Below are positions 19,428 through 49,550 of a DNA stretch of 64,000 nucleotides, in pieces. The notes beneath the pieces were generated by a model that saw only the letters and a list, made by a program, of their open reading frames with translations, had not been told where the DNA came from and searched no databases. The stretch comes from Escherichia coli (lineage in GTDB: Bacteria > Pseudomonadota > Gammaproteobacteria > Enterobacterales > Enterobacteriaceae): the NCBI RefSeq assembly GCF_044647545.1, contig NZ_CP172818.1; one strand, written 5' to 3'. The stretch's first letter is position 1. Each line of letters opens with the position of its first letter. A program made the translations under genes and the position numbers.

Positions 19428-19440
19428 CCTACATGTTCAT

Positions 19441-19799
19441 GCCGGATGCGGCGTGAACGCCTTATCCGGCCTACGAATGGCGCAAGAATCTGTAGGCCTG
19501 ATAAGCGTAGCGCATCAGGCATTTGTCACCATTGCCGGATGCGGCGTGAACGCCTTATCCGGCCTACGAATGGCGCAAGAATCTGTAGGCCTGATAAGCG
19601 TAGCGCATCAGGCATTTGCCACCACTGCCGGATGCGGCGTGGACGCCTTATCCGGCCTACGAGTGGCGCGAGAATCTGTAGGCCTGATAAGCGTAGCGCA
19701 TCAGGCATTTGTCACCATTGCCGGATGCGGCGTGAACGCCTTATCCGGCCTACGAGTGGCGCGAGAATTGTAGGCCTGATAAGCGTAGCGCATCAGGCA
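19441..19799. repeat. BIME/REP array, about 3.9 tandem units of 93 bp, each with two REP palindromes
   Basis: Units begin at 19441, 19534, 19627 and 19720 with near-identical sequence GCCGGATGCGGCGTGAACGCCTTATCCGGCCTAC...GTAGGCCTGATAAGCGTAGCGCATCAGGC. Confidence 0.85.
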
Positions 19800-19848
19800 G
19801 TCTGGCGTTGGTCATAACCCCATCACCCTCTGTAGCGGACATAACAAC

Positions 19849-20803
19849 ATGAAAGAGCTTGTGGTCGTTGCCAATGGTGGCAACAGCATTATAGAAAGAT
19901 AACGCCAGCCAGTCGATTGAGCATCAGGCGGAGGCGGTGAAAGCCGTGGCCGATACGGTGCTGGAAATGCTGGCTTCCGATTACGACGTGCTGACCCACG
20001 GTAACGGGCCGCAGGTCGGCTAAGATACGCCGTGCGGAGATTGCCCACGAGCGCGAAGGGCTGCCCTTAACGCCGCTGGCGAACTGTGTGGCAGATACGC
20101 AGGGCGGCATCGGCTATCTGATCCAACAGGCGCTGAATAACCGGCTGGCGCGTCACGGCGAGAAAAAAGCCGTCACCGTGGTAACTCAGGTGGAAGTGGA
20201 TAAAAACGATCCAGGTTTTGCCCATCCACCAAGCCCATTGGTGCATTCTTCAGTGAAAGCCAGCGTGACAAACTACAAAAGGCAAACCCTGACTGGTGTT
20301 TTGTTGAAGATGCCGGACGGGGCTATCGCCGCGTGGTCGCCTCGCCGGAACCGAAACGTATTGTCGGCACCACCATCGCGCGCTGGAGAGATCCAACAAG
20401 GTTTTGTCGTAATTGGCGCGGGCGGCGGTGGAATTCCGGTAGTGCGTACTGAAGCGGGGGATTACCAGAGCGTGGACGCGGTTATTGACAAAGATCTCTC
20501 TACCGCGCTGCTTGTCGCCGTGAAATTCACGCCGACATTCTGGTGATCACCACCGGCGTCGAAAAAGTCTGTATCCACTTTGGTAAACCGCAGCAGCAGG
20601 CGCTGGATCGGGTGGATATTGCCACCATGACTCGCTATATGCAGGAAGGGCATTTTCCGCCCGGCGGCGTGTTGCCAAAAATCATCGCCAGCCTGACGTT
20701 CCTGGAGCAGGGCGGCAAAGAAGTGATTATCACCACGCCGGAATGCCTGCCTGCGGCGCTGCGCGGTGAAACGGGCACCCATATTCTAAACGTAAGGACG
20801 TAG
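19849..20803 (+). pseudogene. yahI: Carbamate kinase-like gene, frameshifted
   Basis: ATG at 19849 reads MKELVVVANGGNSIIER then stops; downstream fragments (track ORFs 20088..20546 and 20543..20803) carry carbamate kinase-like sequence in other frames. Confidence 0.6.
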
Positions 20804-20804
20804 G

Positions 20805-22214
20805 ATGAAAGAAAGCAATAGCCGCCGTGAATTTCTGAGCCAGAGCGGTAAGATGGTCACCGCCGCCGCGCTGTTCGGTACCTCTTTGCCGCTCGCCCAT
20901 GCGGCGGTAGCTGGCACCCTAAACTGCGAAGCGAACAACACCATGAAAATCACTGACCCGCATTACTATCTCGATAACATGCTGCTGGAAACCGGTTTTG
21001 ACTACGAAAACGGTGTGGCGGTGCAGACCCGCACGGCGCGCCAGACCGTGGAGATTCAGGACGGCAAAATTGTCGCCCTGCGCGAGAACAAGCAGCATCC
21101 GGACGCCACGCTGCCGCACTATGACGCTGGCGGTAAGTTGATGCTACCCACCACTCGCGACATGCATATTCATCTCGACAAAACCTTCTACGGCGGGCCG
21201 TGGCGCTCGCTCAATAGTCCGGCAGGCACCACTATCCAGGACATGATCAAGCTTGAGCAGAAAATGCTGCCGGATTACAACCGTATACGCAGGAGCGGGC
21301 GGAAAAACTGATCGATCTATTGCAGTCGAAAGGCACCACCATTGCCCGCAGCCACTGCAATATCGAACCGGTTTGCCGGCCTAAAAAATCTGCAAAATTT
21401 GCAGGCGGTGCTGGCGCGGCGTCGGGCCAGCTCGAGTGTGAAATCGTCGCCTTCCCGCAGCACGGTTTGCTGCTGTCGAGATCGGAACCCTTAATGCGCG
21501 AAGCGATGCAGGCGGGTGCGCATTACGTCGGCGGGCTGGACCCGACCAGTGTCGATGGCGCGATGGAAAGATCCCTCGACACCATGTTTCAGATTGCGCT
21601 GGACTACGACAAAGGTGTCGATATTCACCTGCACGAAACCACTCCATCAGGGCGTGGCAGCCATCAATTATATGGTTGAAACGGTAGAGAAAACGCCGCA
21701 ACTGAAAGGTAAGCTGACCATCAGCCACGCCTTTGCGCTGGCTACGCTCAACGAACAACAGGTCGATGCGCTCGGCGAATCGGATGGCGGCGCAGCAAAT
21801 TTCTATCGCCCTGACGGTGCCGATTGGCACGCTGCATATGCCGCTCAAACAGTTGCACGACAAAGGCGTAAAAGTGATCACTGGCACTGACAGCGTTATC
21901 GACCACTGGTCGCCTTATAGTATCGGCGACATGCTGGAAAAAGCCAATCTCTACGCGCAGCTCTATATTCGTCCTAACGAACAGAACCTCTCCCGTTCGC
22001 TGTTTCTAGCCACTGGCGATATATTGCCGCAATGAAAAAGGCGAGCGTGTATGGCCAAAAGCGCAGGATGATGCCAGCTTTGTGCTGGTGGACGCCTCCT
22101 GTTCCGCCGAGGCGGTGGCGCGTATCTCGCCGAGAACCGCAACGTTCCATAAAGGGCAACTGGTGTGGGGGAGTGTGGCAGGTTGATGCGCATTTGAAAC
22201 GCCTGCAACGGTGA
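20805..22214 (+). pseudogene. yahJ: Amidohydrolase/deaminase-family gene, split into at least 4 frames
   Basis: Track ORFs 20805..21311, 21320..21679, 21516..21890, 21733..22035 and 22032..22214 read as consecutive pieces; metal-binding HxH motif in the first piece. Confidence 0.55.
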
Positions 22215-22563
22215 ATTGTAAAGAGATTTAAGCCCCAGGGAGTGGGGCAATCTGAATATGAGTGTGTCGGCAGAAATGGACATTATCTTTGAGGAATATG
22301 CCCTTATTGACGTTGTGTAGATAACTATTTGTCTACGTGAAAAGATCATCAGTTTTGCCGATTTTAGTCTTTTACAGATAGCAAATATCACACTTACAGG
22401 CGCTCGCCTTATGGGGAACGTTGCTGCTCTGTTTCATTCAGGCTCGCGGCATGTTGGGGCTGGATCGGGTGGTTTAAATATTGGCTATATTCAATGGACG
22501 CGTTTTGCCGCGATGACATATCAGGCGTTGCCAAATACACATAGCTAATCAGGAGTAAACACA

Positions 22564-23613: not shown

Positions 23614-23851
23614 AAAAATTAATAAATACCCTGTGGTTTAACATATTAACTTCGTTCTCCACTTAACTTTTTAGTTAAGGAGAGCGAAATAATATCAAAG
23701 TAGCAGTAAAACCTATAACGTAAATTTAAATTGTTAAATTAACGCCCTCCAGTACACAATACTTCACACGTTAGTTATGAGCGATTTCTGATAGTGCCTG
23801 GTTTAATCAGAGCTTTATTATCTGCGACGTTTATTTTTATTTAGAGATCGC

Positions 23852-24662
23852 GATGATATCATTAAAAGCTCCGCACAATAATTTGATGCCATATACGCAA
23901 CAAAGCATACTTAATACGGTTAAAAACAATCAGTTACCAGAGGATATCAAAAGCGCCTGGTTTCCTGTGTCGATATATTCAAGGTTTTGATTAAACAATA
24001 TTATGATTATCCTTATGATTGTCGTGATGATTTAGTCGATGACGACAAACTCATTCATCTCATGGCTGCCGTACGAGACTGTGAGTGGTCAGACGATAAC
24101 GCACTCACCATAAATGTGCAGTTTAATGATTTCCCTGGATTTTATGACTGGATGGATTACCCTGATCACCCGGTTAGGGTTACTTCATACTTGAAAATCA
24201 AAAAGGGACAGTTTGGGTATATGACCAGGATGATGCGTTTCTTGATATTAAAGCAAACGTGCAGGCTGGACGCTTTACCGGGCTTAAGAAATTAGTGCAG
24301 TTTATCGATTCAGTGCGAACAGATTGCAAATGTATTCTTCTTGAATACCATATGCCTTTGCTGAGAATTTTCCCTAAAGGGAAAGAGTGTATGCATGTGG
24401 AAAAATGGCTTCGCGAAATGTCGTCTATTCCGGAGACAGACGCGCCCATTAAGCAGGCGCTTGCGCATGGATTATTATTACACTTAAAAAATATCTACCC
24501 TGTTTTCCTGAATCACTGGTGATGTTATTGCTCTCTGTTCTGGACGTAAAAACATACAGAGATGATGCGCGATTAAATGAATGGATATCTAATAGAGTGC
24601 AGGAATTAGGTGACAGATATTATCCTGTAAATAAGCACGTTAAAATCCGCTACACTCTTTAG
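23852..24662 (+). pseudogene. yahL: yahL-like gene, frameshifted; boundaries approximate
   Basis: ATG at 23852 stops after about 45 codons; track ORFs 23987..24295 and 24259..24522 continue in other frames. Confidence 0.4.
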
Positions 24663-25176
24663 TTCAGAAAGGGTTCCACCTGCAAGTTGTTATTCCACCT
24701 GAGAGTGAATCGCAATGCAGGTAATCATTTCATCTGTATATCTGTATGCCAACTGGCATTCCATCTCTTTTTTCGCCGATATTTTGTGTGATCGGCGACA
24801 CTTCGCTTAAAAAAGCACCAGTAGTGGTTTCGCAGCCATGCGGTGTATAAAAAATGATCTCATGCAGATGTTTTGTGAATGTGTTGGTTGACATTCATAT
24901 GAAAAAAATCATAATTCCATCATGTTTGTGTGGGGTCTTTTCTGTATCTTACGCATCGCACTCAAGCCTGACAGAAAATATGCTGTAAGGCTCATATAAA
25001 AAACGCCATTAGCTCATCAGGAAGAGCAGACGACAACCAGGATTGTTGTATGGTACGGGGTTCGAGGCCTCGATGGCGGTCCAACTTTCAAAACTCTTCT
25101 GAATCAGATCCCCTTATTATCATCCCTGCAAAGTGGAACATTGCCATTGTTTGGCTATTCAGGATGGGGCAGACCA

Positions 25177-25356
25177 ATGAAAAAAGCCCACACAGGGGAG
25201 AGTGGGCTGAAATGGGAAGCTAAAGACTCAAGTAAACTTATCGGAAATAAGGACCACGCATCAGGGGCTATCATCGCCGATGGCCGTGATTCGGCAAATC
25301 AGGTTGATTACGTAGAGAGTAAATTATCTGCTCACCGCTGCGTCACCCCTTCGTAA
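25177..25356 (+). CDS. Small hydrophilic ORF (59 aa from ATG) in the yahM position; identity uncertain
   Basis: Part of track ORF 25141..25356; promoter-like TTGACA-N17-ATAATT at 24888-24916 lies upstream. Confidence 0.2.
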   Translation: MKKAHTGESGLKWEAKDSSKLIGNKDHASGAIIADGRDSANQVDYVESKLSAHRCVTPS

Positions 25357-26003
25357 ATCAGGCGTAGCGCGAATACACCAATAATTGCACCAATAACCCG
25401 ACTGGCAACGCGTTGCATACGCCCATAAGCACGACGCACAGCGGGCAAAGAAAACGCCTGACTAAGAAAAACTCGCCAGATAATTGATGCGAGCACAATC
25501 CCCGCCCAGGCCATTAAACGTGCCCATGTTGGTGTTTCGGCATTTAATGTTACTGAGAAAATACTGATAAAAAATAAAACGGTTTGCGGGTTAGAGAGAT
25601 CGGTAATTAATCCGCGGCGAAAAAAGACATACCAGGGGGCGCTAATCGGTTGTTGTAGTGTGCTCATTTGCGGTGTTGACTGGCGGCGCATGCTGCACCA
25701 CGCAAACCATAAGAGATAAGCGCCGCCGACGATTCTGATAAGCGAAAAAATCTCCTCACACTGCGTAATTAGCGTTGCAAGACCAAACAAACCCAACCCG
25801 GAATAAAATGCATCGCCCAGCGCCACGCCCAGCCCGGTCAGCACCCCTGCGCGTCGACCGGAAGCCAGGCTGGTTTGTACTACCACAAAGAGATTGGCTC
25901 CCGGATTAAAAAAAGTAATCACGAACAGTCCTACGGTCAGGTAAACGGCATGCAAAGGATCCATAGTGATTTCATCCATAAATAAGTGAACTAACTGCAT
26001 CAT
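25332..26003 (-). CDS. yahN: LysE/RhtB-family amino acid exporter
   Basis: ORF track 25332..26003, 223 aa, multi-TM. Confidence 0.85.
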   Translation of the reverse strand: MMQLVHLFMDEITMDPLHAVYLTVGLFVITFFNPGANLFVVVQTSLASGRRAGVLTGLGVALGDAFYSGLGLFGLATLITQCEEIFSLIRIVGGAYLLWFAWCSMRRQSTPQMSTLQQPISAPWYVFFRRGLITDLSNPQTVLFFISIFSVTLNAETPTWARLMAWAGIVLASIIWRVFLSQAFSLPAVRRAYGRMQRVASRVIGAIIGVFALRLIYEGVTQR

Positions 26004-26149
26004 ATTTCTACCAAAAATAATCGGGTGCGAGAGAGATCACAAAGTGTCTTATTTCCGGTTACTGGCGTTTATGCCCTGACTGAACTAATTATTAATCAAC
26101 CCAATAATGTGGGTGGGTGATAGTGTGATAACAACTCTGGAGCCGTAAT

Positions 26150-26425
26150 ATGAAAATAATCTCTAAAATGTTAGTCGGTGCGTTAGCGTTAGCCGTTACC
26201 AATGTCTATGCCGCTGAATTGATGACCAAAGCGGAATTTGAAAAAGTTGAATCGCAGTATGAAAAAATAGGTGATATTTCAACCAGCAATGAAATGTCGA
26301 CTGCAGATGCAAAAGAAGATTTGATCAAAAAAGCGGATGAAAAAGGGGCTGATGTGTTGGTACTGACCTCCGGTCAAACTGACAATAAGATCCACGGCAC
26401 GGCAAATATTTATAAGAAGAAGTAA
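26150..26425 (+). CDS. yahO: Small secreted protein (YdgH/BhsA/McbA-like, DUF1471)
   Basis: ORF track 26150..26425, 91 aa, signal peptide [21 protein letters not shown]. Confidence 0.8.
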
Positions 26426-26522
26426 TTCTGAATCCTATGTAAACATCTCCGATGCGTAAGTTTATCGGTGATCATCTATTGAAATTTATGCCGGATAAAG
26501 CGTTCGCGCTGCATTCGGCAGT

Positions 26523-28109
26523 TCAGCTTTTCAGCCGCCGCCAGAACGTCGTCCGGCTGATGCCTAAATAATTCGCCGCTGCTGTTTTATCGCCATTAAA
26601 TTTCTCCAGTGCCTGTTGTGGTGTCAGTAAGCGTGGAGCGGGAGTTTTCGCCGACTCGCGCGCCAGTTCCGGCAGTAGCAGTTGCATAAACTGCGGCGTT
26701 AAATCCGGCGTCGGTTCCACACTTAAAAACAGCGCCAGTCGTTCCATCATATTGCGCAGTTCACGAATATTGCCTGGCCAGTCGTAGTGCAGCAGCACAG
26801 TTTCACTTGCCTGTAACCCCTGGCGTAATGCAGCAGAAAATGGGGCGGAGAGCGCCGCCAGAGACACTTTCAAAAAGCTTTCCGCCAGCGGAAGAATATC
26901 CGCCACCCGCTCGCGCAGTGGTGGCAATTGCAGACGCAAAATACTCAGCCGATAAAACAGATCACGGCGAAAACGTCCTTGCTGCATATCTTCTTCCAGA
27001 TTGCAGTGAGTGGCGCTAATGACCCGTACATCTACCGGAACAGGCTGATGCCCGCCGACGCGGGTGACCTCTTTTTCTTCCAGCACCCGCAGCAGCCGGG
27101 TCTGCAAAGGTAGCGGCATTTCGCCAATCTCATCCAGAAACAGCGTACCGCCGTGGGCAATTTCGAACAGCCCGGCGCGACCTCCGCGTCGCGAGCCGGT
27201 AAACGCCCCTTCCTCATAGCCAAACAGTTCTGCTTCCAGCAGCGATTCGGCAATCGCCCCGCAGTTGACGGCAACAAACGGATGCGACTTTTTGCCCTGT
27301 CGCGCATCGTGGCGGGCAAAATATTCCCGATGAATCGCCTGGGCCGCCAGCTCTTTGCCCGTCCCCGTTTCCCCCTCAATCAACACCGCCGCACTGGAGC
27401 GGGCATACAGCAAAATAGTCTGCCGTACTTGTTCCATCTGTGGTGATTGACCGAGCATATCGCCCAGCACGTAACGAGTACGCAGGGCGTTGCGGGTGGC
27501 ATCGTGAGTGTTATGGCGTAACGACATGCGCGTCATATCCAGCGCATCGCTGAACGCCTGGCGCACGGTGGCGGCGGAATAGATAAAAATTCCGGTCATT
27601 CCGGCTTCTTCTGCCAAATCGGTAATCAGCCCTGCGCCGACCACCGCTTCGGTGCCGTTAGCTTTTAGCTCGTTAATCTGCCCGCGTGCGTCTTCCTCGG
27701 TAATGTAGCTACGTTGGTCGAGGCGCAAATTAAAGGTTTTTTGAAACGCCACCAGCGCTGGAATGGTTTCCTGATAGGTGACAACGCCGATAGAAGAGGT
27801 GAGTTTTCCGGCTTTTGCCAGTGCCTGTAACACATCGTAGCCGCTCGGTTTAATCAAAATAACTGGCACTGACAGGCGGCTTTTCAGGTACGCGCCGTTA
27901 GAGCCAGCCGCGATGATGGCGTCACAGCGTTCGTTTGCCAGTTTCTTGCGGATGTAGGTCACTGCTTTTTCAAAGCCAAGCTGAATAGGGGTAATGTTCG
28001 CCAGGTGATCAAACTCGAGGCTGATATCGCGAAACAGCTCGAACAGGCGCGTTACAGATACCGTCCAGATAACCGGTTTGTCGTCATTAAGCCGTGGTGG
28101 ATGTGCCAT
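26523..28109 (-). CDS. prpR: Sigma-54-dependent activator of the propionate operon (AAA+ enhancer-binding protein)
   Basis: ORF track 26523..28121; ATG at 28109; GAFTGA motif and Walker A GETGTGKE present. Confidence 0.9.
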
Positions 28110-28285
28110 AGCGCACCGCAAAGTTAAGAAACCGAATATTGGGTTTAGTCTTGTTTCATAATTGTTGCAATGAAACGCGGTGAAACATTGCCTGAAACGT
28201 TAACTGAAACGCATATTTGCGGATTAGTTCATGACTTTATCTCTAACAAATTGAAATTAAACATTTAATTTTATTAAGGCAATTG

Positions 28286-28301
28286 TGGCACACCCCTTGC
28301 T
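28286..28301 (+). promoter_or_regulatory. Sigma-54 (-24/-12) promoter TGGCAC-N5-TTGCT upstream of prpB
   Basis: TGGCACACCCCTTGCT read directly about 47 bp upstream of the prpB ATG; matches RpoN consensus. Confidence 0.65.
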
Positions 28302-28347
28302 TTGTCTTTATCAACGCAAATAACAAGTTGATAACAAAGGATGGGCT

Positions 28348-29304
28348 ATGTCTCTACACTCTCCAGGTAAAGCGTTTCGCGCTGCACTGACTAAAGAAAA
28401 TCCATTGCAGATTGTTGGCACCATCAACGCTAATCATGCGCTGTTGGCGCAGCGTGCCGGATATCAGGCAATTTATCTTTCTGGCGGTGGCGTGGCGGCA
28501 GGTTCGCTGGGGCTGCCCGATCTCGGTATTTCTACCCTTGATGATGTGCTGACCGACATTCGCCGTATCACCGACGTTTGTTCGCTGCCGCTGCTGGTGG
28601 ATGCGGATATCGGTTTTGGTTCTTCGGCCTTTAACGTGGCGCGCACCGTGAAATCGATGATTAAAGCCGGTGCGGCAGGATTGCATATTGAAGATCAGGT
28701 TGGTGCGAAACGCTGCGGTCATCGTCCGAATAAAGCGATCGTCTCGAAAGAAGAGATGGTGGATCGGATCCGCGCGGCGGTGGATGCGAAAACCGATCCT
28801 GATTTTGTGATCATGGCGCGCACCGATGCTCTGGCGGTAGAGGGGCTGGATGCGGCGATCGAGCGTGCGCAGGCCTATGTTGAAGCGGGTGCCGAGATGT
28901 TGTTCCCGGAGGCGATTACCGAACTCGCCATGTACCGCCAGTTTGCCGATGCGGTGCAGGTGCCGATCCTCGCCAATATTACCGAATTTGGCGCAACACC
29001 GCTGTTTACTACCGATGAATTACGCAGTGCCCATGTTGCAATGGCGCTGTACCCGCTTTCAGCGTTTCGCGCCATGAACCGCGCCGCCGAACATGTCTAC
29101 AACGTCCTGCGTCAGGAAGGCACGCAGAAAAGCGTCATCGACACCATGCAAACCCGCAACGAGCTGTACGAAAGCATCAATTACTACCAGTACGAAGAGA
29201 AGCTCGACGACCTGTTTGCCCGTAGCCAGGCGAACCCCCCCCCCCCCCCCCACAACGAAAAATATCTCGACCCTACAAAAAAAAAAATGACGAGGACAAT
29301 ATGA
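28348..29304 (+). CDS. prpB: 2-methylisocitrate lyase; the C-terminus runs through a C17 tract, giving an aberrant tail
   Basis: ORF track 28348..29304, 318 aa; sequence is lyase-like up to FARSQ, then [24 protein letters not shown] encoded by the homopolymer region. Confidence 0.7.
29235..29251. repeat. Homopolymer tract C17, followed by A11 at 29277-29287
   Basis: Counted directly in the sequence. Confidence 0.9.
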
Positions 29305-30468
29305 GCGACACAACGATCCTGCAAAACAGTACCCATGTCATTAAACCGAAAAAATCGGTAGCACTTTCTGGCGTTCCGGCGGGCAATACGGCGCTCTGCA
29401 CCGTGGGTAAAAGTGGCAATGACTTGCATTACCGTGGTTACGATATTCTTGATCTGGCGGAACATTGCGAATTTGAAGAAGTGGCGCATCTGCTGATCCA
29501 CGGCAAACTGCCGACCCGTGACGAACTCGCCGCCTACAAAACGAAACTGAAAGCCCTGCGCGGTTTACCGGCTAACGTGCGTACCGTGCTGGAAGCCTTA
29601 CCGGCGGCGTCGCACCCGATGGATGTTATGCGCACCGGCGTTTCCGCGCTCGGCTGCACGCTGCCAGAAAAAGAGGGGCATACCGTCTCTGGCGCGCGGG
29701 ATATTGCCGACAAACTGCTGGCGTCACTTAGCTCGATTCTTCTCTACTGGTATCACTACAGCCACAACGGCGAACGCATTCAGCCGGAAACCGATGACGA
29801 CTCCATCGGCGGTCACTTCCTGCATCTGCTGCATGGCGAAAAGCCGTCGCAAAGCTGGGAAAAGGCGATGGAGATCCGCTGGTGCTGTACGCCGAACACG
29901 AGTTTAACGCCTCCACCTTTACCAGCCGGGTGATCCGGCGGGCACCGGCTCTGATATGTATTCCGCGATTATTGGCGCGATTGGTGCACTGCGCGGCTGA
30001 AGCACGGCGGGGCGAATGAAGTGTCGCTGGAGATCCAGCAACGCGACGAAACGCCGGACGAAGCCGAAGCCGATATCCGCAAGCGGGTGGAAAACAAAGA
30101 AGTGGTCATTGGTTTTGGTCATCCGGTTTATACCATCGCCGACCCGCGTCATCAGGTGATCAAACGTGTGGCGAAGCAGCTCTCGCAGAAGGCGGCTCGC
30201 TGAAGATGTACAACATCGCCGATCGCCTGGAAACGGTGATGTGGGAGAGCAAAAGATGTTCCCCAATCTCGACTGGTTCTCCGCTGTTTCCTACAACATC
30301 AGGGGCTTTCCCACCGAGACGTTCACCCCACTGTTTGTTATCGCCCGCGTCACCGGCTGGGCGGCGCACATTATCGAACAACGTCAGGACAACAAAATTA
30401 TCCGTCCTTCCGCCAATTATGTTGGACCGGAAGCACGCCCGTTTGTCGCGCTGGATAAGCGCCAGTAA
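29301..30468 (+). pseudogene. prpC: 2-methylcitrate synthase gene, split into at least 3 frames
   Basis: Track ORFs 29301..29933, 30021..30203 and 30166..30468 read as consecutive citrate synthase-family segments; span 1168 bp. Confidence 0.7.
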
Positions 30469-30501
30469 ACCTCTACGAATAACAATAAGGAAACGTACCC
30501 A

Positions 30502-31952
30502 ATGTCAGCTCAAATCAACAACATCCGCCCGGAATTTGATCGTGAAATCGTTGATATCGTCGATTACGTCATGAACTACGAAATCAGCTCCAAAGCAGCC
30601 TACGACACCGCCCATTACTGCCTGCTCGACACGCTCGGCTGCGGTCTTGAAGCTCTCGAATACCCGGCCTGTAAAAAACTGCTGGGGCCAATTGTCCCCG
30701 GCACCGTCGTCCCCAACGGCGCGCGCGTCCCCGGAACTCAGTTCCAGCTCGACCCCGTCCAGGCGGCATTTAACATCGGCGCGATGATCCGCTGGCTCGA
30801 TTTCAACGATACCTGGCTGGCGGCGGAGTGGGGCCATCCTTCCGACAACCTCGGCGGCATTCTGGTACGGCGGACTGGCTTTCGCGCAACGCGGTCGCCA
30901 GCGGCAAAGCGCCGTTGACCATGAAACAGGTGCTGACCGCAATGATCAAAGCCCATGAAATTCAGGGCTGCATCGCGCTGGAAAACTCCTTTAACCGCGT
31001 CGGCCTCGACCACGTTCTGTTAGTGAAAGTGGCTTCCACCGCCGTGGTCGCCGAAATGCTCGGCCTGACCCGCGAGGAAATTCTCAACGCCGTTTCGCTG
31101 GCGTGGGTGGACGGTCAGCCGCTGCGCACCTATCGCCATGCGCCGTAACACCGGCACGCGTAAATCCTGGGCGGCGGGCGATGCCACTTCCCGCGCGGTA
31201 CGTCTGGCACTGACGGCGAAAACGGGCGAAATGGGTTACCCGTCAGCCCTGACTGCGCCGGTGTGGGGCTTCTACGACGTCTCCTTTAAAGGTGAGTCGT
31301 TCCGCTTCCAGCGCCCGTACGGTTCCTACGTTATGGAAAATGTGCTGTTCAAAATCTCCTTCCCGGCGGAGTTCCACTCCCAGACGGCAGTTGAAGCAGC
31401 GATGACGCTCTATGAACAGATGCAGGCAGCAGGCAAAACGGCGGCGGATATCGAAAAAGTGACCATTCGCACCCACGAAGCCTGTATTCGCATCATCGAC
31501 AAAAAAGGACCGCTCAATAACCCGGCAGACCGCGATCACTGCATTCAGTACATGGTGGCGATCCCGCTGCTGTTCGGGCGCTTAACGGCGGCAGATTACG
31601 AGGACAACGTTGCGCAAGATAAACGCATCGACGCCCTGCGCGAGAAGATCAATTGCTTTGAAGATCCGGCATTTACCGCTGACTACCACGACCCGGAAAA
31701 ACGCGCCATCGCCAATGCCATTACCCTTGAGTTCACCGACGGACGCGATTTGAAGAAGTGGTGGTGGAGTACCCCATTGGTCATGCTCGCCGCCGTCAGG
31801 ATGGTATTCCGAAACTGGTCGATAAATTCAAAATCAATCTCGCGCGCCAGTTCCCGACTCGCCAACAGCAGCGCATTCTGGAGGTTTCTCTCGACAGAGC
31901 TCGCCTGGAACAGATGCCGGTCAATGAGTATCTCGACCTGTACGTCATTTAA
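30502..31952 (+). pseudogene. prpD: 2-methylcitrate dehydratase gene, split into at least 3 frames
   Basis: Track ORFs 30502..30918, 30828..31148, 31138..31956 and 31758..31952; span 1451 bp. Confidence 0.7.
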
Positions 31953-31990
31953 GTAAACGGCGGTAAGGCGTAAGTCAACAGGAGACCATT

Positions 31991-33871
31991 ATGTTTTAGC
32001 GAATTTTATCAGCGTTCGATTAACGAACCGGAGCAGTTCTGGGCCGAGCAGGCCGTGTATTGACTGGCAGACGCCCTTTACGCAAACGCTCGATCACAGC
32101 AATCCGCCGTTTGCCCGTTGGTTTTGTGAAGGCTGAACCAACTTGTGCACAACGCTATCGACCGCTGGCTGGAGAAACAGCCAGAGGCGCTGGCGCTGAT
32201 TGCCGTCTCTTCGGAAACAGAAGAAGAGCGCACCTTTACCTTTCGTCAGCTGCATGACGAAGTGAACGCGGTGGCCTCAATGTTGCGTTCATTGGGCGTG
32301 CAGCGTGGCGATCGGGTGCTGGTGTATATGCCGATGATTGCCGAAGCGCATATTACTCTGCTGGCCTGCGCGCGCATTGGCGCTATTCACTCGGTGGTGT
32401 TTGGGGGATTTGCCTCGCACAGCGTGGCGGCGCGAATTGATGATGCTAAACCGGTGCTGATTGTCTCGGCTGATGCCGGAGCGCGCGGTGGCAAAATCAT
32501 TCCCTATAAAAAATTGCTCGACGATGCGATAAGTCAGGCGCAGCACCAGCCACGCCATGTTTTGCTGGTGGATCGCGGGCTGGCGAAAATGGCGCGCGTC
32601 AGCGGGCGGGATGTCGATTTCGCGTCGTTGCGCCATCAACACATCGGCGCGCGGGTACCGGTGGCGTGGCTGGAATCCAACGAAACCTCCTGCATTCTCT
32701 ACACCTCCGGCACGACCGGCAAACCTAAAGGCGTGCAGCGTGACGTCGGCGGATATGCGGTGGCGCTGGCGACCTCGATGGACACCATTTTTGGCGGCAA
32801 AGCGGGCGGTGTGTTCCTTTGTGCTTCGGATATCGGCTGGGTGGTGGGGCGTTCTATATCGTCTACGCGCCGCTGCTGGCGGGGATGGCGACTATCGTTT
32901 ACGAAGGATTACCGACCTGGCCGGACTGCGGCGTGTGGTGGAAAATCGTCGAGAAATATCAGGTTAGCCGGATGTTCTCAGCGCCGACCGCCATTCGCGT
33001 GCTGAAAAAATTCCCTACCGCTGAAATTCGCAAACACGATCTCTCGTCGCTGGAAGTGCTCTATCTGGCTGGAGAACCGCTGGACGAGCCGACCGCCAGT
33101 TGGGTGAGCAATACGCTGGATGTGCCGGTGATCGACAACTACTGGCAGACCGAATCCGGCTGGCCGATTATGGCGATTGCTCGCGGTCTGGACGACAGGC
33201 CGACGCGTCTGGGAAGCCCCGGTGTGCCGATGTATGGCTATAACGTGCAGTTGCTTAATGAAGTCACCGGCGAACCGTGTGGCGTCAACGAGAAAGGGAT
33301 GCTGGTGGTGGAAGGGCCGCTGCCGCCGGGGTGTATTCAGACCATCTGGGGCGACGACGGCCGCTTTGTGAAGACTTACTGGTCGCTGTTTTCCCGCCCG
33401 GTGTACGCCACCTTTGACTGGGGCATCCGTGACGCTGACGGTTATCACTTTATTCTCGGGCGCACTGACGATGTGATTAACGTTGCCGGGCATCGGCTGG
33501 GGACGCGCGAGATTGAAGAGAGTATCTCCAGCCATCCGGGCGTTGCCGAAGTGGCGGTGGTTGGGGTGAAAGATGCGCTGAAAGGGCAGGTGGCGGTGGC
33601 GTTTGTCATTCCGAAAGAGAGCGACAGTCTGGAAGATCGTGATGTGGCGCACTCGCAAGAGAAGGCGATTATGGCGCTGGTGGACAGCCAGATTGGCAAC
33701 TTTGGCCGCCCGGCGCACGTCTGGTTTGTCTCGCAATTGCCAAAAACGCGATCCGGAAAAATGCTGCGCCGCACGATCCAGGCGATTTGCGAAGGACGCG
33801 ATCCTGGAGATCTGACGACCATTGATGATCCTGCGTCGTTGGATCAGATCCGCCAGGCGATGGAAGAGTAG
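31991..33871 (+). pseudogene. prpE: Propionyl-CoA synthetase gene, frameshifted
   Basis: ATG at 31991 followed by TTT TAG; track ORFs 32145..33005 and 32819..33871 carry acyl-CoA synthetase sequence in different frames. Confidence 0.7.
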
Positions 33872-33876
33872 GTTAT

Positions 33877-34050
33877 TGTCGGATGCGTCGCGCGGCGCAT
33901 CCGGCACTGGTGCCGATGCCTGATGCGACGCTGACGCGTCTTATCATGCCTACGGACCTGAACCGTAGGTCGGATAAGGCGCTCGCGCCGCATCCGACAC
34001 CATGCTCAGATGCCTGATGCGACGCTGACGCGTCTTATCAGGCCTACCCA
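33877..34050. repeat. BIME cluster of about 4 REP palindromes between prpE and codB
   Basis: Repeated GCCTGATGCGACGCTGACGCGTCTTATCAGGCCTAC-type palindromes read directly. Confidence 0.7.
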
Positions 34051-34117
34051 CTGTTTTTACACCGATAATTTTTCCCCCACCTTTTTGCACTCATTCATAT
34101 AAAAAATATATTTCCCC

Positions 34118-34135
34118 ACGAAAACGATTGCTTTT
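34118..34135. promoter_or_regulatory. PUR-box-like sequence ACGAAAACGATTGCTTTT upstream of codB
   Basis: About 12 of 16 matches to the ACGCAAACGTTTGCGT PurR consensus; codBA is purine-regulated in E. coli. Confidence 0.3.
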
Positions 34136-34199
34136 TATCTTCAGATGAATAGAATGCGGCGGATTTTTTGGGTTTCAAACAGCAAAAAGGGGGAATTTC

Positions 34200-35455
34200 G
34201 TGTCGCAAGATAACAACTTTAGCCAGGGGCCAGTCCCGCAGTCGGCGCGGAAAGGGGTATTGGCATTGACGTTCGTCATGCTGGGATTAACCTTCTTTTC
34301 CGCCAGTATGTGGACCGGCGGCACTCTGGAACCGGTCTTAGCTATCATCAATTCTTTCCTCGCAGTTCTCATCGGTAATCTTCTCCTCGGTATTTACACT
34401 TGATTTCTCGGTTACATTGGCGCAAACCGGCCTGACCACTCATCTTCTTGCTCGCTTCTGGTTTGGTGTTAAAGGCTCATGGCTGCCTTCACTGCTACTG
34501 GGCGGAACTCAGGTTGGCTGGTTTGGCGTCGGTGTGGCGATGTTTGCCATTTCGGTGGGTAAGGCAACCGGGCTGGATATTAATTTGCTGATTGCCGTTT
34601 CCGGTTTACTGATGACCGTCACCGTCTTTTTTGGCATTTGGCGCTGACGGTTCTTTCGGTGATTGCGGTTCCGGCTATCGCCTGCCTGGGCGGTTATTCC
34701 GTGTGGCTGGCTGTTAACGGCATGGGCGGCCTGGACGCATTAAAAGCGGTCGTTCCCGCACAACCGTTAATTTCAATCTCGCGCTGGCGCTGGTTGTGGT
34801 CATTTTCTGGTGGGTACGCTCGCCGCTGGCGCCTTTTGTCCGGTTTGGTCGCAATGCCAAACTGGCGGTGCTGGTGGCGATGGTGGCCTTTTTCCTCGGC
34901 AACTGGTTGATGTTTATTTTCGGTGCAGCGGGCGCTGCGGCACTGCGCATGGCGGATATCTCTGATGTGATGATTGCTCAGGGCCTGCTGCTGCCTGCGA
35001 TTGTGGTGCTGGGGCTGAATATCTGGACCACCAACGATAACGCACTCTATGCGTCGGGTTTAGGTTTCGCCAACATTACCGGGATGTCGAGCAAAACCCT
35101 TTCGGTAATCAACGGTATTATCGGTACGGTCTGCGCATTATGGCTGTATAACAATTTTGTCGGCTGGTTGACCTTCCTTTCGGCAGCTATTCCTCCAGTG
35201 GGTGGCGTGATCATCGCCGACTATCTGATGAACCGTCGCCGCTATGAGCACTTTGCGACCACGCGTATGATGAGTGTCAATTGGGTGGCGATTCTGGCGG
35301 TCGCCTTGGGGATTGCTGCAGGCCACTGGTTACCGGGAATTGTTCCGGTCAACGCGGTATTAGGTGGCGCGCTGAGCTATCTGATCCTTAACCCGATTTT
35401 GAATCGTAAAACGACAGCAGCAATGACGCATGTGGAGGCTAACAGTGTCGAATAA
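34200..35455 (+). pseudogene. codB: Cytosine permease gene, split into 4 frame segments
   Basis: Track ORFs 34200..34403, 34417..34647, 34638..34910 and 34796..35455 read as consecutive permease segments; span 1256 bp. Confidence 0.7.
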
Positions 35456-36728
35456 CGCTTTACAAACAATTATTAACGCCCGGTTACCAGGCGAAGAGGG
35501 GCTGTGGCAGATTCATCTGCAGGACGGAAAAATCAGCGCCATTGATGCGCAATCCGGCGTGATGCCCATAACTGAAAACAGCCTGGATGCCGAACAAGGT
35601 TTAGTTATACCGCCGTTTGTGGAGCCACATATTCACCTGGACACCACGCAAACCGCCGGACAACCGAACTGGAATCAGTCCGGCACGCTGTTTGAAGGCA
35701 TTGAACGCTGGGCCGAGCGCAAAGCGTTATTAACCCATGACGATGTGAAACAACGCGCATGGCAAACGCTGAAATGGCAGATTGCCAACGGCATTCAGCA
35801 TGTGCGTACCCATGTCGATGTTTCGGATGCAACGCTAACTGCGCTGAAAGCAATGCTGGAAGTGAAGCAGGAAGTCGCGCCGTGGATTGATCTGCAAATC
35901 GTCGCCTTCCCTCAGGAAGGGATTTTGTCGTATCCCAACGGTGAAGCGTTGCTGGAAGAGGCGTTACGCTTAGGGGCAGATGTAGTGGGGGCGATTCCGC
36001 ATTTTGAATTTACCCGTGAATACGGCGTGGAGTCGCTGCATAAAACCTTCGCCCTGGCGCAAAAATACGACCGTCTCATCGACGTTCACTGTGATGAGAT
36101 CGATGACGAGCAGTCGCGCTTTGTCGAAACCGTTGCTGCCCTGGCGCACCATGAAGGCATGGGCGCGCGAGTCACCGCCAGCCACACCACGGCAATGCAC
36201 TCCTATAACGGGGCGTATACCTCACGCCTGTTCCGCTTGCTGAAAATGTCCGGTATTAACTTTGTCGCCAACCCGCTGGTCAATATTCATCTGCAAGGAC
36301 GTTTCGATACGTATCCAAAACGTCGCGGCATCACGCGCGTTAAAGAGATGCTGGAGTCCGGCATTAACGTCTGCTTTGGTCACGATGATGTCTTCGATCC
36401 GTGGTATCCGCTGGGAACGGCGAATATGCTGCAAGTGCTGCATATGGGGCTGCATGTTTGCCAGTTGATGGGCTACGGGCAGATTAACGATGGCCTGAAT
36501 TTAATCACCCACCACAGCGCAAGGACGTTGAATTTGCAGGATTACGGCATTGCCGCCGGAAACAGCGCCAACCTGATTATCCTGCCGGCTGAAAATGGGT
36601 TTGATGCGCTGCGCCGTCAGGTTCCGGTACGTTATTCGGTACGTGGCGGCAAGGTGATTGCCAGCACACAACCGGCACAAACCACCGTATATCTGGAGCA
36701 GCCAGAAGCCATCGATTACAAACGTTGA
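35445..36728 (+). CDS. codA: Cytosine deaminase, GTG start
   Basis: ORF track 35430..36728; GTG at 35445 gives 427 aa; HxH metal motif PHIHLD. Confidence 0.9.
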
Positions 36729-36750
36729 ACGACTGGGTTACAGCGAGCTT

Positions 36751-37150
36751 AGTTTATGCCGGATGCGGCGTGAACGCCTTATCCGGCCTACGTAGAGCAC
36801 TGAACTCGTAGGCCTGATAAGCGTAGCGCATCAGGCAATTCCAGCCGCTGATCTGTGTCAGCGGCTACCGTGATTCATTCCCGCCAACAACCGCGCATTC
36901 CTCCAACGCCATGTGCAAAAATGCCTTCGCAGCGGCTGTCTGCCAGCTGTAGTTTATGCCGGATGCGGCGTGAACGCCTTATCCGGCCTACGTAGAGCAC
37001 TGAACTCGTAGGCCTGATAAGCGTAGCGCATCAGGCAATTCCAGCCGCAGACCTGTGTCAGCGGCTACCGTGATTCATTTCCGCCAACAACCGCGCATTT
37101 ATCCAACGCCATGTGCAAAAATGCCTTCGCGGCGGCTGTCTGCCAGCTAT
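36751..37150. repeat. Tandem direct duplication, 2 x 200 bp at about 97% identity, each copy holding a REP element, a hairpin and the last ~85 bp of cynR
   Basis: Copy 1 at 36751..36950 and copy 2 at 36951..37150 aligned by eye; about 6 mismatches. Confidence 0.85.
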
Positions 37151-37964
37151 TTTTCCGCCGCAACAAAACCGCCGTTCTCTCCAGTAGTGGCGGGGCAAGA
37201 GAAATAGCTTTAAGCCCGTCATGTTGTGTGGCAATCGCTGCTGGTAACAATGTGGAAAGGGAAGTGCGGCGAATCAGCTCCAGAACCGCGCTAATTGAGT
37301 TCGCCTCAATGACCACCTGTGGATGTAGCCCCGCTTTCTCGCAGTAGTGGTCAATTTGCTCTCTGGTGGCAAATTCCGCGCTGAGCAGGACCAGTTTTTC
37401 ATCATGCAAGCGACTCAACGCCACCTGTTCATGGACGGCCAGCGGATGATGTTGCGCCACGACTAACGCTAAACTTTCTGTCAGTAAAGGAATTGCCTCC
37501 AGCTCCGGCGAATGCACAGGCGCGAAGGCAATCCCAACGTCCAACTCGTCGCGGCAAAGCATATCCTCGATTTTCTCCTGCGACATTTCCTGTAGCTGGA
37601 GCGTGATGCTGGGATAGCGCGCATAGAAATCCGCCATTAAGGGGCCGATAAAGTAGCTCGTAAAGGTGGGGGTGACGGCGATACGCAGCGATCCTCGCGT
37701 CAGATCGGCAACATCATGAATCGCCCGTTTACCCGCCCCCAGTTCCTGTAACGCCCGGCTGGCGTACTGTCGCCAGACTTCTCCTGCATCAGTGAGACGA
37801 ATCGTTCGCCCGCTACGGTCAAACAGCGGCACGCCTAAACTCTCCTCTAACTGGCGAATCTGCTGGGAAAGCGCAGGTTGGGAGACGTGCAACGCACTGG
37901 CGGCACGGGTGAAGCTGCCATGTTCAGCCACGGCAAGAAAATAATTGATATGTCGAGAGAGCAT
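37065..37964 (-). CDS. cynR: LysR-family activator of the cyn operon
   Basis: ORF track 37065..38048; ATG at 37964 gives 299 aa. Confidence 0.9.
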
Positions 37965-38072
37965 TCGCAACCTATAAGTAAATCCAATGGAACTCATCAT
38001 AAATGAGACTTTTACCTTATGACAATCGGCGAGTAGTCTGCCTCTCATTCCAGAGACAGACAGAGGTTAACG

Positions 38073-38732
38073 GTGAAAGAGATTATTGATGGATTCCTTA
38101 AATTCCAGCGCGAGGCATTTCCGAAGCGGGAAGCCTTGTTTAAACAGCTGGCGACACAGCAAAGCCCGCGCACACTTTTTATCTCCTGCTCCGACAGCCG
38201 TCTGGTCCCTGAGCTGGTGACGCAACGTGAGCCTGGCGATCTGTTCGTTATTCGCAACGCGGGCAATATCGTCCCTTCCTACGGGCCGGAACCCGGTGGC
38301 GTTTCTGCTTCGGTGGAGTATGCCGTCGCTGCGCTTCGGGTATCTGACATTGTGATTTGTGGTCATTCCAACTGTGGCGCGATGACCGCCATTGCCAGCT
38401 GTCAGTGCATGGACCATATGCCTGCCGTCTCCCACTGGCTGCGTTATGCCGATTCAGCCCGCGTCGTTAATGAGGCGCGCCCGCATTCCGATTTACCGTC
38501 AAAAGCTGCGGCGATGGTACGTGAAAACGTCATTGCTCAGTTGGCTAATTTGCAAACTCATCCATCGGTGCGCCTGGCGCTCGAAGAGGGGCGGATCGCC
38601 CTGCACGGCTGGGTCTACGACATTGAAAGCGGCAGCATCGCAGCTTTTGACGGCGCAACCCGCCAGTTTGTGCCACTGGCCGCTAATCCTCGCGTTTGTG
38701 CCATACCGCTACGCCAACCGACCGCAGCGTAA
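38073..38732 (+). CDS. cynT: Beta-class carbonic anhydrase
   Basis: ORF track 38073..38732, 219 aa. Confidence 0.9.
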
Positions 38733-38744
38733 CCTTATTTTTAA

Positions 38745-39233
<489 letters not shown>

Positions 39234-39265
39234 CAGCCATGCGCAACCATCAAAAGACGTTCACG

Positions 39266-40420
39266 ATGCTGCTGGTACTGGTGCTGATTGGTCTTAATAT
39301 GCGACCACTGCTCACCTCCGTCGGGCCACTGCTACCGCAATTGCGCCAGGCGAGCGGAATGAGCTTTAGCGTGGCTGCCCTGTTGACCGCTCTGCCGGTG
39401 GTTACCATGGGCGGGCTGGCGCTGGCCGGAAGCTGGCTTCATCAGCATGTCAGCGAACGTCGCAGTGTCGCCATCAGTCTGTTGCTGATTGCCGTCGGTG
39501 CATTGATGCGTGAGCTTTACCCGCAAAGTGCGCTGCTGCTTAGCAGCGCACTGCTTGGTGGGGTGGGGATCGGCATCATTCAGGCGGTGATGCCTTCGGT
39601 GATTAAACGGCGGTTTCAGCAGCGCACGCCACTGGTGATGGGGCTGTGGTCCGCGGCTCTGATGGGCGGCGGTGGGCTTGGTGCCGCCATAACGCCCTGG
39701 TTAGTTCAACATAGCGAAACCTGGTATCAAACACTCGCCTGGTGGGCGCTGCCTGCCGTTGTTGCGCTCTTTGCCTGGTGGTGGCAAAGCGCCCGCGAGG
39801 TCGCCTCTTCCCACAAGACAACAACCACTCCGGTTCGCGTGGTATTCACTCCCCGCGCGTGGACGCTGGGTGTTTACTTCGGTCTGATTAACGGCGGTTA
39901 CGCCAGCCTGATTGCCTGGTTACCCGCTTTCTATATTGAGATTGGTGCCAGCGCGCAGTACAGCGGTTCCTTACTGGCATTGATGACGCTTGGGCAAGCC
40001 GCAGGAGCTTTGCTGATGCCTGCTATGGCTCGCCATCAGGATCGGCGCAAACTGTTAATGCTGGCGCTGGTGTTACAACTGGTGGGGTTCTGCGGCTTTA
40101 TCTGGCTGCCGATGCAATTGCCGGTATTGTGGGCGATGGTGTGTGGGTTAGGTCTGGGCGGCGCGTTTCCGCTCTGTTTGCTGCTGGCGCTCGATCACTC
40201 TGTGCAACCGGCTATTGCTGGCAAGCTGGTGGCGTTTATGCAGGGAATCGGTTTTATCATCGCCGGGCTTGCCCCGTGGTTTTCTGGCGTGCTGCGTAGT
40301 ATCAGCGGCAATTACCTGATGGACTGGGCATTTCATGCGCTGTGCGTCGTTGGGCTGATGATCATAACCCTGCGTTTTGCACCAGTACGTTTTCCGCAGC
40401 TGTGGGTCAAAGAGGCATGA
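39266..40420 (+). CDS. cynX: MFS cyanate transporter
   Basis: ORF track 39239..40420; ATG at 39266 gives 384 aa. Confidence 0.85.
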   Translation: MLLVLVLIGLNMRPLLTSVGPLLPQLRQASGMSFSVAALLTALPVVTMGGLALAGSWLHQHVSERRSVAISLLLIAVGALMRELYPQSALLLSSALLGGVGIGIIQAVMPSVIKRRFQQRTPLVMGLWSAALMGGGGLGAAITPWLVQHSETWYQTLAWWALPAVVALFAWWWQSAREVASSHKTTTTPVRVVFTPRAWTLGVYFGLINGGYASLIAWLPAFYIEIGASAQYSGSLLALMTLGQAAGALLMPAMARHQDRRKLLMLALVLQLVGFCGFIWLPMQLPVLWAMVCGLGLGGAFPLCLLLALDHSVQPAIAGKLVAFMQGIGFIIAGLAPWFSGVLRSISGNYLMDWAFHALCVVGLMIITLRFAPVRFPQLWVKEA

Positions 40421-40447
40421 TGCGACGCTTGTTCCTGCGCTTTGTTC

Positions 40448-40512
40448 ATGCCGGATGCGGCTAATGTAGATCGCTGAACTTGTAGGCCTGATAAGCGCAG
40501 CGTATCAGGCAA
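40448..40512. repeat. REP element between cynX and lacA
   Basis: GCCGGATGCGGC...GTAGGCCTGATAAGCGCAGCGTATCAGGC read directly. Confidence 0.6.
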
Positions 40513-40522
40513 TTTTTATAAT

Positions 40523-41134
40523 TTAAACTGACGATTCAACTTTATAATCTTTGAAATAATAGTGCTTATCCCGGTCGTTTATTTCGCGAATAACCCGACA
40601 AGGAACGCCAGCCGCCACGACGTTTGGTGGAATGTCTTTTGTGACGATACTACCCGCGCCAATAACAGAATTATCCCCGATGGTGACGCCTGGATTAATA
40701 ACCACATGACTTCCGATCCAGACGTTATTGCCAATCGTTATCGGAAAAGAGTACATCTCGCCGTTTTTTCTCAATTCATGGTGTACAGGGTGTCCCGTAA
40801 CGGAAAGAGTAACGTTGGGTGCAATCAGTACGTTATCACCGATTGTTACCGTGTAGTCATCGACAATGGTTAAATTGAAATTTGCATAAAAATTGCGGCC
40901 TATATGGATGTTGGAACCGTAAGAGAAATAGACAGGCGGTTCTACCCAGGCGTTTTCCCCTACCGTGGCAAACATTTCTTTAATCAGGCTTTCTCTTTTT
41001 TCAACTTCTGATGGATGCGAGTGATTAAACTCATACATTAACGTTTTCCCACGAAGTCTTTTTTCCGGTAAGCCTTCGCACATATCGGTAAATAGCTTGC
41101 CTGCTCTTATTCTTTCGGTCATTGGCATGTTCAA
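40523..41134 (-). CDS. lacA: Galactoside O-acetyltransferase, TTG start
   Basis: ORF track 40523..41185; hexapeptide-repeat acetyltransferase; TTG at 41134 gives 203 aa. Confidence 0.9.
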   Translation of the reverse strand: MNMPMTERIRAGKLFTDMCEGLPEKRLRGKTLMYEFNHSHPSEVEKRESLIKEMFATVGENAWVEPPVYFSYGSNIHIGRNFYANFNLTIVDDYTVTIGDNVLIAPNVTLSVTGHPVHHELRKNGEMYSFPITIGNNVWIGSHVVINPGVTIGDNSVIGAGSIVTKDIPPNVVAAGVPCRVIREINDRDKHYYFKDYKVESSV

Positions 41135-41160
41135 TGCGATCACTCCGTTATGATATGTTG

Positions 41161-41190
41161 GTCGGATAAGGCGCTCGCGCCGCATCCGAC
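41161..41190. repeat. REP element between lacA and lacY
   Basis: GTCGGATAAGGCGCTCGCGCCGCATCCGAC palindrome. Confidence 0.55.
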
Positions 41191-41199
41191 ATTGATTGC

Positions 41200-42498
<1,299 letters not shown>

Positions 42499-42504
42499 TT
42501 ATTA

Positions 42505-45617
<3,113 letters not shown>

Positions 45618-45622
45618 TCACA

Positions 45623-45686: not shown

Positions 45687-45701
45687 TTAATTGCGTTGCG
45701 C

Positions 45702-49549: not shown

Positions 49550-49550
49550 T

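Follow-up and report, generated by a model that had tools for sequence, protein, structure and literature searches.

Broken prpC, prpD and prpE genes in an Escherichia coli assembly: probably a low-quality consensus stretch, not pathway loss

An intact activator next to broken enzyme genes

The 2-methylcitrate cycle is encoded by the prpR-prpBCDE locus, which is activated by PrpR together with sigma-54 and the co-activator 2-methylcitrate. In contig NZ_CP172818.1 of the Escherichia coli assembly GCF_044647545.1, prpR appears intact next to several broken enzyme genes, which raises the question of whether this strain has lost the pathway or the breaks are errors in the record. We addressed this question in a stretch of 64,000 nucleotides that includes the locus (the window). 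Taken literally, the record describes a strain in which the sigma-54 activator and the promoter persist but the enzymes that they control are lost; such a strain would extend the convergent loss of prp and cod functions reported for Shigella. The evidence favours a data-quality problem, and the observation almost certainly does not represent a real biological feature.

The regulatory half of the locus conforms to expectation. The prpR gene (positions 26526-28109, minus strand) encodes a sigma-54-dependent activator of 528 aa that is 100% identical to K-12 PrpR in a tblastn comparison, and there are no mismatches to K-12 in 26001-28000 or in the promoter region, 28000-28800. As in the prp loci of E. 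coli K-12 and Salmonella, prpR is divergent from prpB-C-D-E, the codBA genes lie downstream, and the -24/-12 promoter is identical. A divergent activator with the PrpR_N, Sigma54_activat and HTH_8 Pfam architecture is seen in ten related loci as well. The promoter TGGCAC-N5-TTGCT (TGGCACACCCCTTGCT; 28286-28301, plus strand), located upstream of prpB, is the single match in the whole window, with 0.01 expected by chance. Thus, the sequence-only reading, which described both prpR and the promoter as intact, was correct on this point. An Rfam scan of the window produced matches to the REP-associated naRNA4 only, none of which bears on prp.

In contrast to the K-12 locus, the prpB stop codon is lost in this record and prpC, prpD and prpE are frame-broken. 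With the indels bridged, however, each segment of PrpD, of PrpE and of most of PrpC aligns at 94-100%. Alignment to intact prpBCDE located the individual lesions. The prpC gene (2-methylcitrate synthase; 29301-30468, plus strand) is spread over three frames by five indel events, at 29876 (-1), 29935-7 (+2), 29994 (-1), 30187 (-1) and 30250 (-1), and contains clusters of substitutions at 29871-3, 30300-30320 and 30434-5. Part of its product reads NIRGFPTET, in place of the NMMGVPTEM that is found in K-12 and in six further strains; this cluster, which the sequence-only reading had pointed out, consists of four substitutions within 21 bases, with no indel. The prpD gene (2-methylcitrate dehydratase; 30502-31956, plus strand) falls into four frame segments separated by three indel events, at 30866 (-1), 31146 (+1) and 31742 (-1). 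Four deletion events are present in prpE (propionyl-CoA synthetase; 31989-33871, plus strand), at 31993 (-2, immediately behind the ATG), 32054 (-2), 32147 (-1) and 32854 (-1), and the final 1000 bases of this gene are clean. All three genes are, then, frameshifted as originally claimed, each with several changes of frame. Instead of intact PrpB, PrpC, PrpD and PrpE of 296, 389, 483 and 628 aa, the record contains a prpB frame of 318 aa and three to five indels in each of the other genes; the prp genes are intact in all ten loci that carry the same PrpB allele.

Two further lesions had escaped the sequence-only reading. The body of prpB (28348-29304, plus strand) is intact, with 294 of its 296 aa aligning at 99.7% identity, but its stop codon is lost in a tract of 17 cytosines, and the resulting read-through ORF ends inside the prpC start (the reference tail is ARSQVK followed by the stop). 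The codB gene (cytosine permease; 34200-35455, plus strand) is hit harder than the prp genes, with at least nine indel events at 34327-34834. The last private substitution in codB is at 34946, the remainder of the gene is clean, and codA shows 100% identity.

The C17 and A11 tracts

None of the 15 reference loci contains the C17 tract (29235-29251, plus strand). The prpB-prpC spacer is of the short, 44-bp REP-less type found in strains 1500 and EcPF15, as opposed to the 440-bp form of K-12; the reference spacer reads …GTGAAATAAAACACAACG…ACAAATGACG…, and C17 takes the place of ATAAAAC, which includes the TAA stop codon of prpB. The second tract, A11 (29277-29287, plus strand), lies 14 bases before the prpC ATG where the short-spacer references have A3. 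Homopolymer runs of eight or more are missing from three reference loci of 45-49 kb, the exact C17 junction has no match in the GTDB species-representative genomes, and none of the references has a run at the C17 site that would point to a phase-variable (contingency) tract.

The sequence-only reading had suggested that, if artefactual, the damage would share a cause with the poly-C tract. The artefact part of this suggestion fits our results, and the damaged block does begin with C17, but the tract does not appear to be the cause. The 580 bases just 3' of the tracts (29288-29870) contain no private differences, that is, none that set the record apart from the references, and we therefore rejected disturbance of the downstream reads by poly-C. 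Neither of the other two damaged blocks (see below) is bordered by a long tract; one of these, block 1, contains only a small A5/C4 expansion well inside it (16355-16362; GAATTC to GAAAAACCCCG).

Three blocks of lesions private to one record

The lesions in and around prp form one of three damaged blocks, which together cover about 23% of the 64-kb window. Block 3 (29235-34946; 5.7 kb) extends from the prpB stop to the middle of codB. Besides C17 and A11, its private differences, as judged against the 15 reference loci, amount to about 34 substitutions and, counted as events, 17 deletions and about 5 insertions. Damage of the same type upstream, which had not been noted before, makes up the other two. 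In block 1 (15037-22220), yahD, yahE, yahF, yahG, yahI and yahJ are frame-broken, with 51 gap openings against strain 1500; its private substitutions are 32 transitions and 27 transversions, and its private indels comprise 9 inserted bases and 18 deletions. In block 2 (23655-25264), yahL and yahM are frame-broken, whereas yahK and yahN, which precede and follow the block, respectively, show 100% identity to K-12. The three blocks touch 14 unrelated genes, so that the damage follows stretches of sequence and not gene function, and block 3 ends mid-codB, at no operon limit. Several of the edges do lie near the limits of genes: the left edge of block 3 coincides exactly with the prpB stop, block 1 extends from about 60 bases inside yahD to about 35 bases past the yahJ coding sequence, and block 2 runs from shortly after yahK to before yahN.

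Between and beyond the blocks, the sequence is clean. Against the 15 reference loci, the flanks 25301-29200 and 34951-38000 show no private differences; in comparisons with three to fifteen references, indels are confined to the three blocks, with none in 25301-29200 or 34951-53319. There are no mismatches to K-12 at 35-41 kb. This identity does not require that the clean segments come from a K-12 laboratory strain, because wild strains, such as EC931, are likewise identical to the window there.

None of the lesions recurs elsewhere. The 15 reference loci carry not a single one, where evolutionary pseudogenes would be expected to share some, and, among about 15 billion proteins, exact matches to the broken forms of PrpB, PrpC and PrpD come from one NCBI contig only. 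The lesions are absent from 5,400 genomes. The best match to prpCD among 5,219 RefSeq complete E. coli genomes is 98.3%; the source record is itself missing from this set, which may reflect exclusion for too many frameshifted proteins. A search with the LacZ allele of the window led to ERR3372659, which is identical to the window over 41302-45577 and lacks every lesion. We rejected it as a sister genome because it diverges by 2-4% in cyn, cod and prpE.

The spectrum of the private changes is equally unusual. In block 3, private transitions and transversions number 15 and 25 (14 and 20 outside the tracts), compared with 221 and 62 among the shared polymorphisms (Fisher p = 4e-7). The private changes lack the third-position bias of the shared ones (13, 12 and 6 at codon positions 1, 2 and 3 versus 20, 8 and 239), and by class AT>GC (15) and G<->C (9) changes dominate over GC>AT (only 8), contrary to the AT-directed bias of bacterial mutation. 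Indels are about as common as substitutions (about 22 events and 34, respectively), there is one transposition of adjacent bases (AC>CA at 30434-5), and lesions cluster at densities of up to about 9 per 40 bases, as at 34799-34834. Of the 25 bases deleted, 17 were in runs of 1-2, and homopolymer slippage, whether from a mismatch-repair defect or as pyrosequencing- or nanopore-type error, was therefore rejected as the main cause. The natural background under these lesions consists of known alleles, which resemble EcPF15 at 28.8-30.0 kb and K-12 further on. Not all of the 40 mismatches per kb that separate prpC from K-12 are errors: most belong to the natural EcPF15-like allele, and the private subset alone is anomalous.

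Consensus error or genuine loss

Judged from the sequence, the broken prp genes are very probably a sequencing or assembly artefact, a low-quality stretch of consensus. We infer that the lesions originated as follows. The locus would be an ordinary E. coli prpR/prpBCDE operon, in which PrpR and sigma-54 drive prpB, prpC, prpD and prpE, and 29235-34946 would be one of three places in the assembly where the consensus is of poor quality over multiple kilobases. Miscalled, dropped, inserted and transposed bases, along with the two runaway homopolymer calls (C17 and A11), would have entered the consensus and broken each reading frame that they touched, leaving neighbours based on good data free of errors. 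Candidate origins include single-pass or low-coverage gap fill or an unpolished long-read consensus. If the frameshifts are consensus errors, they are uninformative on the use of propionate by the strain.

The principal alternative is that the lineage, perhaps a Shigella-like or host-restricted one, has dropped the use of propionate and cytosine, so that prpCDE and codB decayed while prpR and prpB were kept. The frames are truly broken in the sequence, the excess of deletions over insertions (17 against about 5) resembles bacterial pseudogene decay, and the proximity of some block edges to gene ends would also fit lost selection on particular genes. However, E. coli mutation-accumulation rates imply roughly ten substitutions per indel in real decay, whereas here each gene has 3-9 indels with about as many substitutions, and these substitutions are transversion-rich and AT>GC-biased, not transition-rich and GC>AT-biased as in natural decay. 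About 7 kb of flanking genes show no private change, even a synonymous one, where functional neighbours should have diverged during the time that decay takes. Because lesions at a density of about 1% adjoin such flanks, neutral decay is ruled out; with a background of sampled alleles and flanks 100% identical to K-12, there was no time for it. Precedent for real loss does exist: prpBCDER and codBA, the same two functions as here, are among those convergently lost in Shigella (Touchon et al. 2009, PMC2617782, Table 6), and the source chromosome, at 4.50 Mb, is small and Shigella-sized. Unlike in Shigella, where loss occurred by deletions, IS insertions or single hits, the window contains many small private indels, no IS element in 64 kb and an intact lacIZYA operon; prpR, prpB (except for its stop) and codA are preserved, and the yah genes are hit as well. 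With the block ending in the middle of codB and its lesions being singletons among the 15 billion proteins, we consider genuine pseudogenes unlikely. The proposal in the sequence-only reading that the 2-methylcitrate cycle was lost and its regulator kept is thus not supported: the lesions are not prp-specific, are private to one record, and have a density and spectrum that mutation could not produce next to genes free of private change.

Other explanations would take some or all of the lesions as real. Long homopolymers degrade downstream Sanger and Illumina signal, and C17 and A11 coincide with the left edge of block 3, as would be expected if the tracts were real, for example, slippage-grown spacer runs, with the remaining lesions being artefacts, perhaps of tract-disturbed chemistry. 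This is highly unlikely, given the clean 580 bases right after the tracts, the 5.7 kb of damage, far longer than one read, and the lack of a long edge tract in blocks 1 and 2; no reference has a run there, and C17 is not slippage-grown from the ancestral sequence because the ATAAAAC that it stands for is non-repetitive. Slightly harder still to credit is the possibility that all lesions are real and that, in the living strain, extreme mutagenesis confined to kilobase patches (substitutions, frameshifts and runaway homopolymers) destroyed prpCDE, codB and yahD-J but left their neighbours untouched; if true, this would point to an unknown process of patchwise error-prone DNA synthesis in E. coli. 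A specific version of this, in which three patches of 2-7 kb acquired their many substitutions and frameshifts through error-prone repair or the action of a targeted mutator, draws on the sharp blocks of differences with dense clusters, such as 34799-34834, and on the -1 frameshifts that result from DinB-type synthesis. We know of no bacterial process that produces about 1% lesions over kilobases together with G<->C swaps, transpositions and 10-base homopolymer insertions; with the lesions being unique to one record, this version is barely credible.

The practical value of an artefactual origin is a warning: the three blocks are unreliable and, without the reads, no pseudogene, frameshift or homopolymer call from this record should be taken as biology, which applies to C17 as well as to the disrupted yah genes and codB. 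The damage resembles that in assemblies flagged for "many frameshifted proteins", with record-private lesions, indels about as numerous as substitutions, no codon-position or transition bias, blockwise damage across unrelated genes and homopolymer overcalls. A further point counts against an artefact: to our knowledge, no platform has an error profile that combines non-homopolymer deletions with a C17 overcall. Typical long-read and pyrosequencing artefacts are concentrated in homopolymers and occur genome-wide, whereas here most deleted bases lie outside runs and 18 kb stretches are perfectly clean, so the assembly appears to be based only partly on poor data.

Frames and background of the prp locus

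The window covers the E. coli yah-prp-cod-cyn-lac-mhp region. As the sequence-only reading had it, the regulatory end of the prp locus is in order: prpR (28109-26526, minus strand) encodes a 528-aa product identical to K-12 PrpR, and the sigma-54 promoter TGGCACACCCCTTGCT is present at 28286-28301, with no second match in the window. The frameshifts reported in the structural genes are also there; alignment to the references reveals 5 indel events in prpC, 3 in prpD and 4 in prpE, with each gene spread over several frames. prpB, which starts at 28348, is intact through residue 294; its TAA stop falls within a stretch that reads as a C17 homopolymer tract (29235-29251), so that the ORF extends 22 codons into the start of prpC. 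An A11 run follows 3' of C17 (29277-29287).

Most of the divergence in the first part of prpC (40 mismatches per kb from K-12) is natural: at about 28.8-30.0 kb, the allele in the window resembles that of strain EcPF15, and elsewhere the locus is K-12-like. The prpB-prpC spacer (29200-29300) is part of this allele; it has the short, 44-bp REP-less form found in strains 1500 and EcPF15, in contrast to the REP-containing K-12 spacer of roughly 440 bp. The substitution cluster noticed earlier in PrpC is confirmed in the sequence, with NIRGFPTET produced by four substitutions in 21 bases compared to NMMGVPTEM in seven other strains.

Three damaged blocks and their private lesions

When the window was aligned to strains 1500, EC931 and K-12 MG1655, indels were confined to three blocks, with none between or beyond them. 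Block 1 (15037-22220) is larger than the prp-containing block 3; here, about 50 small indels together with private substitutions, that is, those absent from every reference locus compared, break the frames of yahD, E, F, G, I and J alike. Block 2 (about 23655-25264) affects yahL and yahM and is flanked by yahK and yahN. Block 3 (29235-34946) encompasses the prpB stop, prpC, prpD, prpE and the first 60% of codB (34200-35455), in which at least 9 indel events lie within 34327-34834. The damage ends inside codB, at no operon limit: CodA, whose gene overlaps the broken codB, is 100% identical to its K-12 counterpart, as are YahK, YahN, YahO, PrpR and CynR, and 34951-53319 shows zero indels compared to EC931 or K-12. 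Blocks 1 and 2 resemble block 3 in the character of the lesions; thus, the damage extends beyond prp and is not specific to it. Just to the left of block 1, at 14129-14237 (start of yahB and the yahB-yahC spacer), roughly twelve closely spaced substitutions, with no indels among them, are absent from the four references and could be either an unsampled natural allele or the onset of a poor stretch.

The lesions of block 3 were compared with 15 reference loci (four RefSeq genomes, one Logan contig that spans only prpE and codB among these genes, and ten NCBI loci encoding the same PrpB allele). Wherever covered, prpC, prpD, prpE and codB are intact in all 15. Besides the C17 and A11 expansions themselves, 34 substitutions outside these two tracts are private to the window, together with 17 deletion and about 5 insertion events; the flanks (25301-29200 and 34951-38000) contain no private differences from the same panel. 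The prpCD match is at best 98.3% across the 5,219 complete E. coli genomes in RefSeq; in a collection of 15 billion proteins, exact copies of the broken products (PrpB at 318 aa, PrpC at 210 aa, PrpD at 138 aa) come from a single contig, an NCBI record of 4,499,902 bp.

The poly-C tract had been suspected of sharing a cause with the frameshifts. The lesions of block 3 begin with C17, which therefore belongs to the same damaged stretch, and to that extent the suspicion stands; as the origin of the remaining damage C17 is rejected, given that the 580 bases directly 3' of the tracts are clean and that blocks 1 and 2 have no comparable tract at their edges. Nor can C17 have grown by slippage, because the ATAAAAC that it replaces is non-repetitive. 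A small A-run and C-run expansion resembling C17 and A11 is found within block 1, where GAAAAACCCCG (16355-16362) replaces the GAATTC of all references.

Artefact or gene loss

Genuine decay of the prp-codB genes is the principal alternative. Both prpBCDER and codBA are among the functions convergently lost in Shigella (Touchon et al., PMC2617782); furthermore, the chromosome of origin is small, there are more deletions than insertions, and several block edges lie close to gene ends. The lesion spectrum argues otherwise. The private substitutions of block 3 comprise 15 transitions and 25 transversions (14 and 20 outside the tracts), against 221 and 62 among the shared polymorphisms (Fisher p = 4e-7), and are distributed over codon positions 1, 2 and 3 as 13, 12 and 6, compared to 20, 8 and 239. 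Bacterial mutation is naturally biased toward GC>AT transitions, and natural private variants at 41-47 kb include 22 GC>AT and 10 AT>GC changes; the private changes of block 3 are 15 AT>GC, 9 G<->C, 8 GC>AT and 2 A<->T. Some of the lesions form tight clusters (four deletions, one 4-base insertion and five substitutions within 34799-34834), and AC>CA at 30434-5 is a swap of adjacent bases.

Timing is adverse as well. With about 4 indels per kb accumulated at wild-type E. coli mutation rates, roughly ten times as many substitutions would be expected, whereas they barely outnumber the indels, and such a span of decay would have let neighbouring functional genes gain private synonymous changes; yet about 7 kb of flanks show no private change against the full panel, and identity to K-12 is complete at 26-28 kb and 35-41 kb. 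Had the block been imported in decayed form from a lineage not yet sampled, many private, transition-rich substitutions would be expected; a clone-wide pseudogene, as in Shigella, predicts recurrence in other assemblies. Neither is seen, and the background of block 3 equals alleles already sampled. The yah genes are damaged too, lacIZYA is intact, and the 64 kb contain no IS elements. These spectrum and timing arguments outweigh the points for real loss, which is left with a small probability, and they count, along with the damage in yah and codB, against the option, raised earlier, that the strain lost the 2-methylcitrate cycle and kept its regulator.

The other option raised from the sequence, an artefact, is favoured by the non-prp-specific blocks, the private lesions, and a spectrum and timing unlike those of real decay: very probably, the prp locus is itself ordinary and the breaks come from a poor-quality stretch of consensus, with no real biological feature behind them. 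The blockwise pattern would be consistent with single-pass gap filling, or with an unpolished long-read consensus, in an assembly that is accurate elsewhere. Slippage-type mutation or a homopolymer-type platform error is rejected as the main cause because 17 of the 25 deleted bases sit in runs of one or two, and we know of no platform profile that accounts for both the non-homopolymer deletions and the C17 overcall.

Mosaic and repeats in the rest of the window

Outside the blocks, the window is a mosaic, with about 22.3-28.8 kb and 35-41 kb identical to K-12 and the outer parts diverging from it by 1-6%. The K-12 IS2 in yaiX is missing (junction near 60055), and lacZ with part of lacY (41302-45577) shows full identity to a contig from run ERR3372659. 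REP/BIME arrays occupy 19440-19799 (3.9 copies of a 93-bp unit) and 36746-37148 (two copies of a 200-bp unit), and a single copy lies 3' of prpE (33968-34044); four matches to Rfam naRNA4 (RF02564) fall within the first array and the prpE-adjacent site.
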